Part shown: positions 32,320-62,778 of the stretch, piece by piece
Position numbering within the stretch: the stretch's first letter is position 1
How the letters are laid out: the number at the start of each line of letters is the position of its first letter
From: a virus
IMG/VR virus record: IMGVR_UViG_3300042287_000745
Location: 1 to 64,000 of that record
Length of the DNA: 64,000 bases
Reading direction: 5' to 3' (one strand)
Made by a program: the position numbers and the translations under genes
The notes under the pieces: generated by a model
The model's database searches: none
Seen by the model: the letters and a program-made list of their open reading frames with translations, nothing else
Told to the model about the DNA's origin: nothing

Positions 32320-32357
32320 ATACTATATACTGTATAATTAAATTGATAAAGACTTAT

Positions 32358-33221
32358 ATGAGCAAAATTAAAGTAGCAGAACTATTTTATAGTATTCAGG
32401 GAGAAGGTCGGTACATGGGTGTTCCTTCTGTTTTCTTGCGCACATTTGGTTGTAACTTTAAGTGCGCAGGGTTTGGTATGCCAAAAGGTCAAGTTAGTAC
32501 AGAAGTAGATGATATTGCATATACGCATATGAATATTGAATCATTCCAAACATATCAAGAACTTCCTTTGGTAAGTACTGGGTGTGATAGTTATGCAAGT
32601 TGGGATCCTAGATTTAAGGGACTATCTCCTCTCCTTGAAGTTGACAGTATCGCAAAATCTATTGTAGACCTGTTACCCGCAAAAGGTTGGCAACAAGAGC
32701 ATTTGGTAATTACTGGCGGTGAACCTTTATTGGGCTGGCAAAAATCCTACGAAGAATTATTAGAACATCCTTTGATGAAATCTTTAGATGAACTAACATT
32801 TGAAACAAACGGTACCCAATCTTTGACTGAGGAATTTACTGATTATCTATTTCAAGAATGGACGCGATTTGGTAGAGATTATGATAAATTAACTTTTTCG
32901 GTTTCCCCTAAATTATCTGTTTCGGGAGAAAAGTGGGAAGATGCAATTAAGCCAGATGTAGTTTGTGACTATCAAAAAATAGGCAATACGTATTTAAAAT
33001 TTGTAGTAGCATCAGAAGAAGATGTCGTTGAAGCAGAAAAAGCAGTAGCGGAATATCGCAAAGCCGGATTTTATGGGCATATTTATTTGATGCCGGTAGG
33101 TGGTATTGAAACCGTGTATTATATGAACAATAAACGAGTTGCAGAAATGGCAATGAAGTTGGGCTGGAGATATTCCGATAGATTACAAGTTCCCTTATTT
33201 AAGAATCAATGGGGAACGTAA
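32358..33221 (+). CDS. queE: 7-carboxy-7-deazaguanine synthase (radical SAM)
   Basis: ELFYSIQGEG, VFLRTFGCNFKC...GCDS (split CxxxCxxC), VITGGEPL, FETNGT, SVSPKL. Confidence 0.9.
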   Translation: MSKIKVAELFYSIQGEGRYMGVPSVFLRTFGCNFKCAGFGMPKGQVSTEVDDIAYTHMNIESFQTYQELPLVSTGCDSYASWDPRFKGLSPLLEVDSIAKSIVDLLPAKGWQQEHLVITGGEPLLGWQKSYEELLEHPLMKSLDELTFETNGTQSLTEEFTDYLFQEWTRFGRDYDKLTFSVSPKLSVSGEKWEDAIKPDVVCDYQKIGNTYLKFVVASEEDVVEAEKAVAEYRKAGFYGHIYLMPVGGIETVYYMNNKRVAEMAMKLGWRYSDRLQVPLFKNQWGT

Positions 33222-33706: not shown

Positions 33707-34387
33707 ATGTCATACAACAAAACTAAAACAGATTCAGAATTAGGTCAACAAGTACATGCCTACCTAGTTAAAATGGGAGTTGAAACTCCTACTATTTCTA
33801 GACTAATTGATCGTAAAGAAAAAATTGAGATTATTGAAAAGAATTTCATTAATATTATGGACACACTTGGATTGGACTTATCAGATGATAGTCTAATGGA
33901 AACCCCTAAACGGGTCGCAAAAATGTATGTCAACGAAATATTTTGGGGATTAGATTATGATGCATTTCCAAAATGTACTACGGTTGAAAATAAAATGCGT
34001 TATAACGAAATGGTTGTTGAGCGTAATGTAAATGTTCAAAGTAATTGCGAGCATCACTTTGTAGTTATTGATGGGTTGGCGACTATCGCATATGTTCCTA
34101 AAAATCATGTTCTTGGTTTAAGTAAAATTAATCGTATCGTAGAATATTTTAGTAAGCGCCCTCAAATACAGGAACGGTTAACAGAACAAATTTTTCATGC
34201 ATTATGTTTTATTCTAAATACTGACGATGTTGCTGTATTAATTGATGCTCAGCATTACTGTGTTAAATCTAGAGGTGTTGAAGATACGGGCAGTTCTACT
34301 GTTACCGTACGCCTCGGAGGAGGATTTAAGACCGACCCCGCAGTAAGAAATGAATTTTTAAGTATTGCGAGAATGGGCAAAAAATGA
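33707..34387 (+). CDS. folE: GTP cyclohydrolase I
   Basis: ETPKRVAKM, SNCEHHF, GLSKINRIV, RPQIQERLT, HYCVKSRGV. Confidence 0.97.
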   Translation: MSYNKTKTDSELGQQVHAYLVKMGVETPTISRLIDRKEKIEIIEKNFINIMDTLGLDLSDDSLMETPKRVAKMYVNEIFWGLDYDAFPKCTTVENKMRYNEMVVERNVNVQSNCEHHFVVIDGLATIAYVPKNHVLGLSKINRIVEYFSKRPQIQERLTEQIFHALCFILNTDDVAVLIDAQHYCVKSRGVEDTGSSTVTVRLGGGFKTDPAVRNEFLSIARMGKK

Positions 34388-34927: not shown

Positions 34928-36292
34928 ATGAATACGTATAAAAAAAGAATAGCATTTTGTCTTAGTGATCAACATACTATTCCTCACGGCGGATTAGGTC
35001 AATTCGCAAAATCCTTTATTGAAACTTTTACTCCTCTCGGATATAAGGTAGATATTATATTAGATAGACCAGCATCTAATACAGGGTTCAAAACATACTT
35101 AGAAGAACAAGGCGCAAGATTTATTTGCGCCGAACCTATTAGCTATACAAACCATACAAAAACATTTATGTTTGAGGATTCCTTTAACTTTGAAAAGATG
35201 GTAAATTTCAGGGAATCCATGATGAAAGCACTTAATGAAAATTTGTATGACATTATTATATGTAATACATTAGAATCATTCCCCGCAATTTATTCATTGA
35301 ATCTACAAAAAAGTATACAAATAATTTATTATACCCATAATGAAAGTATGGTATTTTTAGATGATCGTGAATGGAAAAATGAATTTACGGAATCATTTAA
35401 TGAAACATTTAACGCATTAATGGGCGTTAAAGGTATTACGATTGGTACTCAGACTTTGCGAAATTTATCTGAATTACATAAGTCTAAAATACCAAATGCG
35501 AAATATTTGCCAATACTTATGACTGAGAAAACATTACTACAAAAGCACATTAAGCCTAGAGAAGGTGTATTGTGGATCGGTCGATGGGAACCTAGGAAAA
35601 ATCCAGAAGCATTTATTGAGATGATTCAACAAACAGGATTGCCTGCAAAAGTAATTACAAATGCAACAGGCGCAAAGAAGTTTGAAACTGCATTGCAAGC
35701 TATTAATGCTAAATATGAAATAAGATCAGGAATATATGGACAAGAAAAGGTAGACTTTTTAACGTCTGCGAGAGTAGCATACAATCCTGCGATACGAGAA
35801 AGTTTTGGATTAGCATTTTATGAAACAATAGGGCACATGCCGACCGTTGCAATTGAGGGAATGTCCTGGTTAGGAAATTTTCCTAATACTAACTATTTTG
35901 CAGTACAGAAAAAAGTAGTACCTAAGGTAATCGTTGACCTATATGCAAAGTTTAAGAATTCTGAACTTTGGTATCAACAAGGAGTTCTAGAATCAATACG
36001 AACTTTAGATAGAAATGGTATAGAAGAATGGGAACGGTGTTTTAATTCTTTTGAATATATTAAATCAATTTCTGAAAGAGCTAAAATTAATGAAGTCGAT
36101 GTATCTACGTATAAAGATTTTATAACTTCTCTAAATAGGAAAGCTTTGTCTATTGACGATGTTCGTTCTGTATTGACAAACAAGCATAAATTTAATATAA
36201 TATACACAGATACACAAACCTATATATCTAAAGACAAAAACTTCGTTCCAAAAGAAGAATCTGATAATTCACTAGAAAGTTTATTCGTATGA
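34928..36292 (+). CDS. GT-B (GT4-like) glycosyltransferase
   Basis: PHGGLGQF N-terminal loop, YYTH, WIGRWEPRKNPE, and the ExxxxxxxE motif RESFGLAFYE. Confidence 0.8.
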   Translation: MNTYKKRIAFCLSDQHTIPHGGLGQFAKSFIETFTPLGYKVDIILDRPASNTGFKTYLEEQGARFICAEPISYTNHTKTFMFEDSFNFEKMVNFRESMMKALNENLYDIIICNTLESFPAIYSLNLQKSIQIIYYTHNESMVFLDDREWKNEFTESFNETFNALMGVKGITIGTQTLRNLSELHKSKIPNAKYLPILMTEKTLLQKHIKPREGVLWIGRWEPRKNPEAFIEMIQQTGLPAKVITNATGAKKFETALQAINAKYEIRSGIYGQEKVDFLTSARVAYNPAIRESFGLAFYETIGHMPTVAIEGMSWLGNFPNTNYFAVQKKVVPKVIVDLYAKFKNSELWYQQGVLESIRTLDRNGIEEWERCFNSFEYIKSISERAKINEVDVSTYKDFITSLNRKALSIDDVRSVLTNKHKFNIIYTDTQTYISKDKNFVPKEESDNSLESLFV

Positions 36293-37578
36293 GCCGACAA
36301 TTAGAATATGTTATATCTGGACCAGCATACCTTCGGTTGGGGTCTGAGCAATGCGATGATCCTGAAACATTGCAAATGATTAATGATTTGATTCTTAAAA
36401 CGGTTCATAATAAAAATAATCATCAATTTTCTCTTTTGTATAATGGATTTACAGAAAAGAACTTTGGTAAGAAATTGCAAAAATATAGACCAGCAGTTAA
36501 AAATATTCATGCGGACTCTGGTGGTTTGCAGATTGTTACTCGTGGATTGCAGAATACTCCTGAGACAAGAAACAAAGTATATGAAAATCAGGCAGCATGG
36601 GCAGATATTGGAATGGCATTTGATGAGATTCCGGTAAAATCTACTTCTGCAAGTGGCGTATCCTCAAAAATTGATACTAAACGTAGATATGTTGATATGG
36701 AAAATTTTGAGACATATGCAAGACAGACAGGTAAGAATGTTAAAGATCAAATTTTAAAATTTGATTCTGTTAAAAGTGATTGTCGTCCTTTTGTTATTAT
36801 TCAGGGGTCAGGGCAAGATACGTATCAGCAGTGGACTGAATATATGTTAGATGAAATTCCTAAAGAATTGCATCATCGTATTGGCGGTGTCGCTATGGGA
36901 TCGGCTGCATTGGGTATGGGACCACTCGAAGATGTAAAGCGAGCATTTTATGTAAATGCTGTACCTTTTGAAAAACCGTTTCATCTACACGTACTAGGGG
37001 TAGGTGCATTAAAACGCATATTGCCGTATTTACTTTTTAGCCAAACTGGTCTTTATAAAGATATTGATATATCATATGATTCTACAACACATTCTATGTC
37101 ATTGGATAACGGATTATTTTACTTCTCACATTGTAAAAAAGGTACACCTGGAGACTATGGTGGATCATCTGTAAAAATGGGTAGACCATATTCTAATATC
37201 TATCGGACTGTTACTAACGAAATTAATTCAGTATGTGGTACAGATTACTCCCCTGAAGAATATCATAAATTGATGAATATTTCAGTCGGTGAATATTTAG
37301 AAAAGGGTGGTAAATTTATAGATATTATGCGTGCTCGACTTTCCTTTATTTTAACAAATGTGCATAATTTTACTATGGATGTCTCAAACTTAATGAATTC
37401 TAAAGATGAATTTTTACGTTTCTGTAGAGATAAGAATTGTGAAAATGAATATAGTACATTATTCGATGTCAAAACATCTGAGGATTTTATCTATTGGGAA
37501 AAACACGTAGGAAAATTTATGGATTCATCTCCGGTAAATATTATTGCACCATCATCTCTTGAGGACTTATTTGCATGA
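36289..37578 (+). CDS. dpdA: DNA 7-deazaguanine transglycosylase (DpdA/TGT-like)
   Basis: TGT-barrel motifs HADSGGLQ, AFDEIP, VIIQG, HLHVLGVG and SYDSTT, inside a folE/queD/queE cluster. No obvious bacterial Tgt zinc site. Confidence 0.8.
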   Translation: MSRQLEYVISGPAYLRLGSEQCDDPETLQMINDLILKTVHNKNNHQFSLLYNGFTEKNFGKKLQKYRPAVKNIHADSGGLQIVTRGLQNTPETRNKVYENQAAWADIGMAFDEIPVKSTSASGVSSKIDTKRRYVDMENFETYARQTGKNVKDQILKFDSVKSDCRPFVIIQGSGQDTYQQWTEYMLDEIPKELHHRIGGVAMGSAALGMGPLEDVKRAFYVNAVPFEKPFHLHVLGVGALKRILPYLLFSQTGLYKDIDISYDSTTHSMSLDNGLFYFSHCKKGTPGDYGGSSVKMGRPYSNIYRTVTNEINSVCGTDYSPEEYHKLMNISVGEYLEKGGKFIDIMRARLSFILTNVHNFTMDVSNLMNSKDEFLRFCRDKNCENEYSTLFDVKTSEDFIYWEKHVGKFMDSSPVNIIAPSSLEDLFA

Positions 37579-37994
37579 ATTTTGCTAGCTCAATTATTAA
37601 TACATCTGACATAATTATGAAACAAACAAGTTATATTTGGGTAACATTCCAAAAAGAGGGTATCCACAAATATCCTGCTGCGGCAACGGATCCTAAATTA
37701 GCAACAGGCGATTGGCTCGATGTTAGTTTCTTAAGTACACCACATCGGCATATATTTCATTTCAGAGTTGAGATGCAGGTATTCCATGATGATCGAGATG
37801 TAGAATTTATACAAGCAAAACGAATAATGGAACGATGGTATTCTGATGGCACATTGCAGTTAGATTATAAATCTTGCGAAATGATGGCTAGAGAGCTATA
37901 TGGTCGCCTAAATACTATGTGGCCTAATAGAAATTATGTTATTGAAGTATCTGAAGATAACGAAAACGGTTGTAAACTATATTTTGGAGAGTAA
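37575..37994 (+). CDS. QueD-like T-fold protein with LxxxHRHxF motif (DpdL-like, putative CDG decarboxylase)
   Basis: FLSTPHRHIFHFRV, DRDVEFI, SCEMMA, VSEDNENG. Start may be at 37617. Confidence 0.7.
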   Translation: MNFASSIINTSDIIMKQTSYIWVTFQKEGIHKYPAAATDPKLATGDWLDVSFLSTPHRHIFHFRVEMQVFHDDRDVEFIQAKRIMERWYSDGTLQLDYKSCEMMARELYGRLNTMWPNRNYVIEVSEDNENGCKLYFGE

Positions 37995-39173: not shown

Positions 39174-40148
39174 ATGACTAAGACTGTTATAGTTACAGGC
39201 GCCGCCGGTTATATCGGTGGCGCTATTTGCATAGAACTTATTACCAAAGGGTATTATGTAATCGGTATTGATCGCCGAGCATTACCTTCGCATTTGGAAA
39301 TATATTGCGATGAATTTATCCAATCTGATTTTATTGGTTATGCATCATTAATGCAAGTAGAAAAACAACCATGTGCAATTATACATTGTGCGGGTACAAG
39401 TTTAGTTGGACCTAGTATACAAAACCCCGAAGAATATTATGAAAACAATATTCAGAAAACTTTAGAATATCTAAAATATATTCGCAAACGTTCTGCAAAT
39501 ACCAAATTTATTTTTAGTAGCAGCGCCTCTGTGTATGGGAATCCTAATACAGATGTACCAATAACAGAAGAACAACCAACTAATCCTATTTCACCTTACG
39601 GTGAATCTAAGTTAATGATTGACCGGGCTTTGCATTCTTTTAATATCGCATATGGTATGCAATATGTTTCTTTTAGATATTTTAATGCATGCGGAGCAAT
39701 TGAGAACAGTATACATGGGCAGGAGGCAAACGCTTCACATATTTTTCCTAGAGTGTTTGAAGCAATTTTAGAAAATCTCCCATTTACATTAAACGGAAAT
39801 GATTATAATACTAAAGATGGGACCTGTGTTAGAGATTATGTTCACGTATCAGATATTGCTAGCGCACATGTAATGGCAATAGAAAAAAATATACAAGGAA
39901 TATATAATATAGGATCTATCAGAGGTTACTCTAATCTGGAGATCATCAAAGAAGTATCTAAATGTTTAGGTAAAAACTTATCTATTGAAATTGCAGATAA
40001 GCGTATAGGTGACCCTGCATATCTAATTGCAGATTCTAATAAATTATTTTTAGATGCGGGTTGGACAGCAAAAAAAGATTTACGTACTATTATTAAAGAT
40101 TTACATGACTGGTACTTCCCAGAGGCCTCCGGCGCTCATCCCTCTTAA
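39174..40148 (+). CDS. galE: UDP-glucose 4-epimerase
   Basis: VTGAAGYIG, FSSSASVYG, YGESK, FRYFNACG, DGTCVRDYVHV, RIGDPAYL. Confidence 0.92.
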   Translation: MTKTVIVTGAAGYIGGAICIELITKGYYVIGIDRRALPSHLEIYCDEFIQSDFIGYASLMQVEKQPCAIIHCAGTSLVGPSIQNPEEYYENNIQKTLEYLKYIRKRSANTKFIFSSSASVYGNPNTDVPITEEQPTNPISPYGESKLMIDRALHSFNIAYGMQYVSFRYFNACGAIENSIHGQEANASHIFPRVFEAILENLPFTLNGNDYNTKDGTCVRDYVHVSDIASAHVMAIEKNIQGIYNIGSIRGYSNLEIIKEVSKCLGKNLSIEIADKRIGDPAYLIADSNKLFLDAGWTAKKDLRTIIKDLHDWYFPEASGAHPS

Positions 40149-40183
40149 AATATTCTGCGTGTCTTCTTTTAAATATGGAGACA
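40121..40183 (+). ncRNA. Candidate preQ1-I-like riboswitch (H-type pseudoknot) plus RBS-sequestering hairpin upstream of queD
   Basis: P1 AGAGG/CCUCU with a loop ending CAUC, an A-rich tail UAAAA, and loop GCGC complementary to tail GCGU. UGUCUUC/GGAGACA then covers the GGAG RBS. Confidence 0.55.
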
Positions 40184-40189
40184 AATAAA

Positions 40190-40675
40190 ATGACAAACAA
40201 AAAATTCTTTTCTACAAAAACATACAGACAAATCGGGCCAGTTGCTTACCGGCAATGGCGCGCCGATTCTCATTGCAATTTAATTCATGGTTATGCTATG
40301 AGTTTTCACTTTGAATTTGAAGCAGATACGTTAGATGCTCGCAATTGGGTTACTGACTTCGGAGGACTAAGACCACTTAAGGATAGTCTAGAAGAGTGGT
40401 TCGACCATACTTTACTTGTCGCTGAAGACGATCCTATGCGAGACGAACTACTGCACTTAGGTAAAATTGGCCTGGCTAAAATTACAGAAGTAGAACGAAC
40501 CGGTTGCGAAGGCATTGCTGATTTTCTATATGAATATATTAACACTATCTTTTTACCTAATTGCGGCGCAGAAGAAGCAAAACGGGTCTGGTGCTGCCGG
40601 GTAGAGGTCCGGGAAACAGATTCTAATATGGCTGGCAGAAACGGTCACCGAGAAGATAATGAATTTATGGCATAA
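40190..40675 (+). CDS. queD: 6-carboxy-5,6,7,8-tetrahydropterin synthase
   Basis: CxxxHG motif HCNLIHGY, WVTDFG, FDHTLL, VEVRET. ATG 40190 follows the GGAG RBS. Confidence 0.9.
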   Translation: MTNKKFFSTKTYRQIGPVAYRQWRADSHCNLIHGYAMSFHFEFEADTLDARNWVTDFGGLRPLKDSLEEWFDHTLLVAEDDPMRDELLHLGKIGLAKITEVERTGCEGIADFLYEYINTIFLPNCGAEEAKRVWCCRVEVRETDSNMAGRNGHREDNEFMA

Positions 40676-62411: not shown

Positions 62412-62750
62412 ATGATTAGATTACTTAAATTGATAACCAGTGAAGAAATTGTAGGCGATTGCACTAAACGAGGATCAAAGATTTTTGTAAAAAAACCTTG
62501 TGCGATTATGTTGATTCAATCTAGATCGACTCCGGATCAACATTCTATGGCATTAATTCCATACGCAGGTTATACTAAAGGGCATGAGGTTCAAATTGAA
62601 TCTAAGCATATTGTATGGGAAGCTGAGTTGGATGAGGATGTATTAAATCAATACAACTCATTATTCGGATCAGATATTCAAATTGTGTCTGCCTCAGTAG
62701 AAAAACCAACAATCCCTAATACATCTACATTAAACATTGTAAAAAATTAA
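62412..62750 (+). CDS. Conserved Sm-like-fold T4-like protein
   Basis: IRLLKLITSEEIV...KKP...LIPY; usual neighbour of hsp20. Confidence 0.65.
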   Translation: MIRLLKLITSEEIVGDCTKRGSKIFVKKPCAIMLIQSRSTPDQHSMALIPYAGYTKGHEVQIESKHIVWEAELDEDVLNQYNSLFGSDIQIVSASVEKPTIPNTSTLNIVKN

Positions 62751-62753
62751 TCT

Positions 62754-62778
62754 AAAAAACTAGGGCAACGCCCTAGTT
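62754..62778 (-). terminator. Terminator between convergent operons
   Basis: AACTAGGGC-AAC-GCCCTAGTT; the A-run on its left gives a U-tract for - strand transcripts. Confidence 0.75.

Follow-up and report, generated by a model that had tools for sequence, protein, structure and literature searches.

A conserved, uncatalogued pseudoknot leader of phage queD genes and its candidate role as an ON riboswitch

Here we describe a leader RNA preceding a queD-like gene in a 64,000-nucleotide stretch of viral DNA (hereafter the window), comprising positions 1-64,000 of IMG/VR record IMGVR_UViG_3300042287_000745, a phage fragment whose full contig is 74.7 kb and ~41% complete. The queD leader, at 40121-40183 on the + strand, is a member of a family of leader RNAs built on a conserved, uncatalogued pseudoknot that is specifically linked to phage queD. 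From comparative sequence analysis we read it, with moderate confidence, as an ON riboswitch acting on queD, with a preQ1-I-like fold and a pathway metabolite as its predicted ligand. Two properties of the family, among others, speak for this reading: one conserved aptamer (as we refer to the pseudoknot) carries interchangeable expression platforms, which is a hallmark of riboswitches, and its unpaired loops are strongly conserved, as in ligand pockets.

Architecture, covariation and distribution of the leader

The window element comprises two helices (P1 and P2), three loops (L1 to L3) and a hairpin that holds the Shine-Dalgarno (SD) sequence of queD:

40121..40125, + strand: 5' arm of P1, AGAGG, pairing with 40141-40145
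40126..40130, + strand: L1, CCUCC; the family consensus starts YCU
40131..40135, + strand: 5' strand of P2, GGCGC, pairing with GUGUC at 40159-40163
40136..40140, + strand: L2, UCAUC, its final C directly before the P1 3' arm
40141..40145, + strand: 3' arm of P1, CCUCU, pairing with 40121-40125
40146..40158, + strand: L3 (tail), UAAAAUAUUCUGC, 13 nt, with an A-rich first half and an AYUCUGC ending
40159..40163, + strand: 3' strand of P2, GUGUC, four of its five bases shared with the anti-SD arm
40160..40183, + strand: SD-sequestering hairpin of the minimum free energy (MFE) structure, UGUCUUC (40160-40166) with GGAGACA (40177-40183)
40177-40181, + strand: SD, GGAGA, part of the hairpin 3' arm, 14 nt beyond the P2 3' strand

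Read in order, P1, L1 (YCU...), P2, L2 (UCAYC), P1', L3 (A-rich, then AYUCUGC) and P2' form an H-type pseudoknot of ~43 nt (40121-40163). The hairpin loop, CCUCCGGCGCUCAUC at 40126-40140, spans L1, the 5' strand of P2 and L2, and ends in CAUC. The original prediction, made from the letters of this DNA, had proposed a variant preQ1-I-like riboswitch here, and the P1 arms and loop ending that it quoted stand in the sequence exactly as given. Its claim that UGUCUUC and GGAGACA bury the queD SD agrees with the MFE structure, in which this hairpin covers GGAGA, and the GC-rich patch that it placed over the end of galE was also recovered (GC content 0.50 at 40110-40169, vs ~0.23-0.43 on the flanks, with the UAA stop codon inside the tail). 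The loop-tail pseudoknot that it proposed is upheld as a covarying helix, but in a different register: GCGC (40132-35) with GCGU (40157-60) is physically possible, but the pairing of the family, GGCGC with GUGUC, lies 2 nt off. The single-sequence folding energy of the element is unremarkable (z = -0.31), as expected given that RNAfold cannot model a pseudoknot of ~50 nt.

Pairing was quantified by pair counts on MAFFT alignments that had not been fitted to any structure, with P1 and the loop-tail helix P2 named beforehand and then counted. Both helices covary. In the A2 alignment (72 sequences), 92.7% of cells are paired and 57 are double-change cells, against 14.3 after shuffling; the A3 alignment (44 sequences, the window included) gave 89.2% and 33 against 5.6. 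None of the 500 shuffles reached the observed value in either alignment, and sliding the partner columns by 1-3 positions lowered pairing to 33-64%. P1, which RNAalifold recovered independently, is 99% paired among 116 relatives through AU/UA, GC/CG/UA and CG/AU/UA exchanges, and double changes occur in all columns of P2 but one. Conservation and covariation among related leaders, which the original prediction had left to be established, are thus borne out.

In total, 143 distinct leaders were collected from uncultured phage contigs, mostly from lakes. These leaders contain 8 variants of P1 (e.g. AGAGG/CCUCU, AGCGG/CCGCU and ACCGG/CCGGU) and 25 different contiguous P2 helices, including GGCA/UGCC, GGCG/CGCC, GGUG/CACC, GGAA/UUCC, GGGC/GUCC, GACGC/GUGUC and AUGGCAU/AUGUCAU. 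The length of P2 ranges from 4 to 7 bp across the family, and its covarying register starts directly after the invariant CUGC. An extension of P2 by pairing of CA in L2 with UG in L3 is tentatively possible, with one compensatory case (L080, UCG/CCGC). We also considered pairing of the P1 5' arm with CUGC, which fits AGCGG but fails for AGAGG of the window, and rejected it because there is no covariation.

The single-stranded segments are strongly conserved. The first three bases of L1 are UCU in 81 leaders, CCU in 59 (as in the window) and ACU in 3, while L2 occurs mainly as UCAUC (96), UCACC (16), UCAUUC (11), UCAAC (9) and UCACUC (7), with its UCA near-invariant. A cytosine directly precedes the P1 3' strand in 143/143 leaders, itself preceded by U (~81%), C (~13%) or A (~6%); this C was required by our leader parsers, yet no leader retrieved solely through the protein lacks it. 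The AYUCUGC ending of L3 is invariant, including in the protein-fetched set, which is unbiased by any DNA pattern.

To locate the element within its own genome we used R1, a covariance model built from 72 relatives with the window and its subgroup left out. Across both strands of the 64 kb, the sole significant match was at 40121-40170 (18.3 bits, E = 0.003; next best E = 2.2), and the whole 74.7 kb contig returned the same single match.

The link to queD was recovered from two directions. Starting from the protein, a QueD search of viral contigs identified 344 relatives, and upstream regions were fetched for the best 80. By covariance model, 79 of these 80 loci possess the aptamer in one copy, the remaining locus holding just 35 upstream bases, and no further copy was found elsewhere in the flanks of the 80 loci. 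The aptamer is always on the sense strand, directly 5' of the QueD-like gene or of a cupin gene preceding queD (L017, L024), and the genes upstream of it are unrelated among these loci. Starting from the DNA, a pattern for the core, which fixed GG..CCC and the end of L3, matched at least 119 stretches in viral contigs, with a perfect P1 in 111 of the 119 listed. The downstream protein belongs to a single QueD-like cluster in 182 of 186 cases, the exceptions being the cupin gene preceding queD and one methyltransferase-like open reading frame (ORF). A divergent second QueD-like family (195 aa, the other type being 161 aa) was also identified behind the same aptamer, with slightly different loops, and the aptamer spans different phage lineages with estimated genomes of ~180 kb and ~350 kb. 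Further variants are present in lake metagenome DNA contigs.

Outside viral contigs, the first 120 pattern matches listed from bacterial and archaeal genome contigs contained one true copy (L258); nearly all of the rest were chance matches, with P1 pairing of 2-5. L258 lies on contig NZ_JBBAKG010000001.1 (183 kb), binned as a Haliscomenobacter sp. metagenome-assembled genome. The size of this contig suggests a phage genome binned with that assembly, and the binning may hint at a host, though binning is no evidence of one. No copy of the aptamer was found in cultured phages: by blastn the window region matches only part of queD there (65-72% identity), a leader of the commonest subtype (type A, below) has no match, and the nearest cultured QueD genes, of Acidovorax phage ACP17 and Xanthomonas phage X1, abut their upstream gene without a leader.

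Interchangeable platforms and the predicted direction of control

At least four unrelated platforms were identified behind this one aptamer, with a 5' arm that overlaps the 3' strand of P2:

Type A, the commonest subtype: CCUAUG...CAUAGG(AG)
Type B: CAUC or CGUC...GAUG
Type C: CAUUG...CAAUG
Platform of the window: UGUCUUC...GGAGACA

In 142 of the 143 leaders, two or more bases of the SD or AUG are paired in the MFE fold of the platform, and the P2 3' strand overlaps the sequestor 5' arm by at least 1 nt in 115 of the 143. The SD itself lies 14-30 nt downstream of P2, within the separate sequestor helix. When the P2 strand is blocked, mean platform energy changes from -5.7 to -2.3 kcal/mol, and that of the window platform from -7.5 to -1.4 kcal/mol. 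Since formation of P2 removes the anti-SD arm, the predicted outcome is an ON switch and not simple end-product feedback, contrary to the OFF control implied by the original prediction. In the mechanism that we propose, a small molecule, most likely, would stabilise the knot, and the anti-SD arm would then be taken into P2, leaving the ribosome-binding site free and queD translated.

In many relatives a downstream queE would also be switched on. Loci of type A in jumbo phages (L010:3480-5500; L036:3483-4331) possess a QueE-like radical-SAM gene downstream of queD, and in L010 an FAD-dependent oxidoreductase of the DAO family lies between the two. As queD is followed by a QueE-like gene in several relatives, the leader would control an operon, and with it synthesis of 7-carboxy-7-deazaguanine (CDG), and not queD alone.

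Promoter-like sequences were observed within and around the aptamer. In 100/101 type A leaders (e.g. L007:2955-2983), a sigma-70-type promoter can be read through L3, the 3' strand of P2 and the SD-hairpin loop, consisting of TTTACA or TATACA, a spacing of 17-18 bp and an extended -10 element, TGnTAnnnT; the L007 leader scores 11/12, and loop variants retain T1, A2 and T6 of the -10 box. A transcript from this promoter would start in the 3' arm of the hairpin, without the aptamer and the anti-SD arm, such that type A phages probably make a short unregulated mRNA beside a long regulated one. Subtypes B and C have no -10 box, and a scan of window positions 39700-40400 found no sigma-70 promoter or intrinsic terminator in the element (40121-40192). 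Upstream of the aptamer, ATAA(A/G)TA, resembling a T4 late promoter, ends 3-12 nt before P1 in 52 of 139 distinct upstream flanks (e.g. L346, L007), and in the L340/L346 group a TTGACA-17-TATACT sequence ends 6 nt before P1. These motifs are suggestive, and in many relatives the mRNA probably begins with the aptamer.

A number of points weigh against the riboswitch reading. In many relatives P2 and the sequestor share only 1-2 nt, and even when the P2 strand is blocked the SD or AUG stays weakly paired in 121 of the 143 platforms, leaving the switching direction uncertain. Every known preQ1 class switches genes off (PMC11625349), and among que genes it is uncommon for a biosynthetic gene to be under an ON switch. 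Leaders collected by pattern have GG..CCC and the L3 end fixed, so that column invariance is partly by construction, although the protein-derived sets show the same columns. Furthermore, given the near-consensus promoter in the commonest subtype, some of the conservation may serve a DNA-level function, and the mRNA 5' ends are placed by promoter-like motifs alone.

Pathway genes on the contig and the candidate ligand

The contig carries T4-like features (UvsW, a gp55-like sigma factor and gp46/47-like nucleases) and, upstream of the element, a cluster of genes related to DNA modification. The genes relevant to this study are:

32343-33221: QueE-like gene, upstream of the element
33707-34387: FolE gene, upstream of the element
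Upstream of the element: purine phosphoribosyltransferase gene
Upstream of the element: exonuclease gene
Upstream, same cluster as the FolE, QueE-like and GalE-like genes: two glycosyltransferase-like ORFs
36289-37578: weakly Tgt-like ORF, a putative DpdA from a weak TIGR00430 match only
37575-37994: DpdL-like ORF, 139 aa, with the motif LSTPHRHIF
39174..40148, + strand: GalE-like NAD-dependent epimerase ORF (Pfam PF01370, 7.7e-55)
40190..40675, + strand: QueD-like 6-carboxytetrahydropterin synthase gene (PF01242, 7e-16; PHROG 2389, 4e-41; TIGR03367)

The start codon of queD is the AUG at 40190; an in-frame ATG at 40175 lacks an SD, and the later start was chosen because the N-termini of homologues begin MTNKK or MANKK there. 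The phage QueD-like proteins behind the aptamer (window 40190-40675; see also L321:6004-6480, Acidovorax phage ACP17) read SHCNLIHGY, i.e. CxxxHGY, vs the QueD signature CxxxHGH. Judged by eye, the first zinc-histidine position appears as RQW in the aptamer-linked proteins, with the Cys and the DH pair retained, and the phage enzyme may therefore differ from canonical QueD. A sequence search of the PDB with QueD returned no match.

DpdL is the proposed CDG decarboxylase of phages with 7-deazaguanine (dDG), with the signature LxxxHRHxF (PMC10516641). The combination of FolE, QueE, QueD and a DpdL-like motif without QueC or QueF predicts DNA modification of the 7-deazaguanine (dDG) type. As the original prediction had noted, neither QueC nor QueF was found in the contig; no convincing QueC was found in 4 relatives judged 100% complete (~350 kb) either, and Pfam TGT gave no match on the contig at E <= 0.001. 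Without QueC and QueF, these phages would not make preQ0 or preQ1 themselves, and the likely ligands are accordingly other molecules of the pathway. That the ligand is something other than preQ1, as suggested originally, is plausible.

As a weaker inference, the ligand would be a purine- or pterin-shaped metabolite of the FolE-QueD-QueE-DpdL route to 7-deazaguanine DNA, the candidates being dihydroneopterin triphosphate (H2NTP), 6-carboxytetrahydropterin (CPH4), CDG, 7-deazaguanine and guanine released by base exchange. Such a ligand would be read by the invariant cytosine of L2, as in preQ1-I, and feed-forward by a substrate would suit an ON switch. Taken together, the fuller proposal is of a new, almost phage-only riboswitch class that senses a non-preQ1 metabolite of the 7-deazaguanine DNA-modification route (7-deazaguanine, CDG, H2NTP/CPH4 or guanine released by DpdA) and turns queD translation on; this we advance tentatively, being slightly more inclined to doubt it than to accept it.

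Alternative explanations and comparison with known RNAs

Pseudoknots that control translation by binding a protein have precedents in the T4 gene 32 leader and, more broadly, in ribosomal-protein leaders. A protein-binding operator, through which QueD itself, another pathway enzyme or a RegA-like repressor controls translation, would be expected to leave the same pattern of conserved structure and loops before one gene family. Furthermore, T-fold proteins bind purines and pterins (PMC10516641), making autoregulation by QueD conceivable, and phage ACP17, the closest cultured relative, is annotated with a regA gene. We consider an operator unlikely, however, given that the aptamer accompanies very different QueD-like proteins (161 aa and 195 aa) in different phage lineages. 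Joined to several unrelated platforms as well, it has a distribution more typical of a metabolite sensor, and no RNA-binding domain adjoins the element.

Also to be weighed is a structural leader needing no ligand, i.e. an mRNA-stabilising 5' pseudoknot, a thermosensor, a ribosome standby site or a coupling device, in which the kinetics of folding, or ribosomes completing translation of the upstream ORF, would determine the balance between knot and sequestor. The aptamer of the window contains the last 9 codons of the GalE-like ORF together with its UAA stop (40146-40148, the first triplet of the tail), and since the end of this ORF is encoded by the pseudoknot, ribosomes terminating there must open P1 and occupy part of P2. 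GalE-like ORFs stop inside L3 in two subtypes (window 40146-40148; L009:2960-2962), and in many relatives the element is predicted to lie at the mRNA 5' end; both points favour a structural leader. Contrary to this view, a stabiliser or thermometer has no need of single-stranded L2 and L3 sequences that are near-invariant across subtypes, nor of an attachment to one enzyme family, seen as a single copy in 74.7 kb and no further copies in the flanks of the 80 loci, and we regard it as a little less probable still than the operator. A frameshifting or readthrough pseudoknot for galE was rejected, since the knot itself contains the stop codon and the majority of family members are intergenic at the mRNA 5' end.

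The leader might instead be a genuine preQ1-I riboswitch that has diverged, with preQ1 or preQ0 as its ligand and repression of queD as its effect. Searches with Rfam 15 at the gathering threshold detected nothing in the window or in 14 related loci, and at E <= 10 nothing relevant at window positions 39900-40400 or in the L007 leader. Comparison of five phage records with the preQ1-I model, RF00522, gave scattered sub-threshold matches elsewhere but none at 40121, while a Bacillus subtilis control passed the cut-off; the Rfam check of the proposed preQ1 affinity thus came back negative even at E <= 10. The best sub-threshold RF00522 match in the contig, at window 62741-62769 (17.2 bits, gathering score 39, E = 0.02), probably arose by chance from A-rich sequence. 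The element is outside the catalogued preQ1 riboswitch family. In favour of a divergent member stand the H-type knot, the 5-bp P1, UC preceding the P1 3' strand as in type I, an L3 that opens A-rich and the association with a que gene; with a 13-nt L3 ending in UCUGC, a longer P2 that excludes the SD, wiring that favours ON, and phages devoid of QueC and QueF, we find this identity very improbable. Least credible of all is a DNA-level signal only, with a terminator hairpin followed by a queD promoter: the promoter reading in 100/101 leaders of the commonest subtype would accord with it, but it is contradicted in the window, where the element has no promoter- or terminator-like site, as well as by the missing -10 box of subtypes B and C, by the covariation of hairpin-loop and promoter-'spacer' bases in P2, which has no DNA-level explanation, and by a hairpin loop of 15 nt without a U-tract.

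The riboswitch reading was further compared with known systems, following for preQ1-I the types I-III reviewed in PMC11625349. As in preQ1-I (RF00522), an H-type pseudoknot is built on a 5-bp P1 with P2 between the hairpin loop and the 3' tail, a C stands directly before the P1 3' strand, L3 starts A-rich, and the RNA lies 5' of a queuosine or 7-deazaguanine biosynthesis gene, acting on translation initiation (here predicted). The specificity cytosine of preQ1-I, whose position the final C of L2 takes here, occurs as UC in type I and as AC in types II and III (PMC11625349); the window has UC. To this extent the likeness drawn originally holds, whereas other features differ: L1 begins YCU and not UU (or U) after the P1 5' strand; L3 is 13 nt with an AYUCUGC end, against ~6-9 A-rich nt; P2 is longer (4-7 bp) and free of the SD, whereas in preQ1-I its 3' strand contains SD bases; the sequestor is separate and competes with P2, predicting ON where preQ1-I is OFF; and the phages that carry the element lack QueC and QueF.

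The preQ1-II and preQ1-III classes are likewise pseudoknotted and que-linked, and preQ1-III has its platform away from the pocket, but they are much larger HLout-type folds located 5' of queT in Firmicutes and switch OFF, and neither has an Rfam match here. Small sensors of pterins or purines, such as the tetrahydrofolate (THF)-II riboswitch (folE motif), resemble the leader as small RNAs on a GTP-cyclohydrolase or pterin-branch gene, with ligands that present a guanine-like face; these, however, are bacterial OFF switches with a different fold, a hairpin with an internal loop, and again there was no Rfam match here. The T4 gene 32 leader pseudoknot is also of H-type, sits at the leader 5' end of one gene of a T4-like phage and acts in translational control; in contrast, it is a nucleation site for the gp32 protein, has no competing SD-sequestering arm and shares no sequence similarity with the leader described here.

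Among the papers searched, none links a riboswitch to phage queD or DpdA, and the word 'riboswitch' occurs 0 times in PMC10516641. The fold is ~43 nt, supported by covariation and abundant in lake viromes, and its small size makes it directly accessible to biochemistry and structure determination. Ligand binding, should it occur, would reveal how phages regulate the timing or amount of 7-deazaguanine supplied for anti-restriction DNA modification. To our knowledge, phage-borne riboswitches are rare and none governs DNA hypermodification; should the fuller proposal hold, this would be the first riboswitch dedicated to that process, a preQ1-I-like fold re-tuned to a new ligand with the opposite logic. 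Relative to known RNAs, a ligand-binding leader would add a new ligand specificity or class and provide a natural ON-type counterpart to a well-studied small aptamer.

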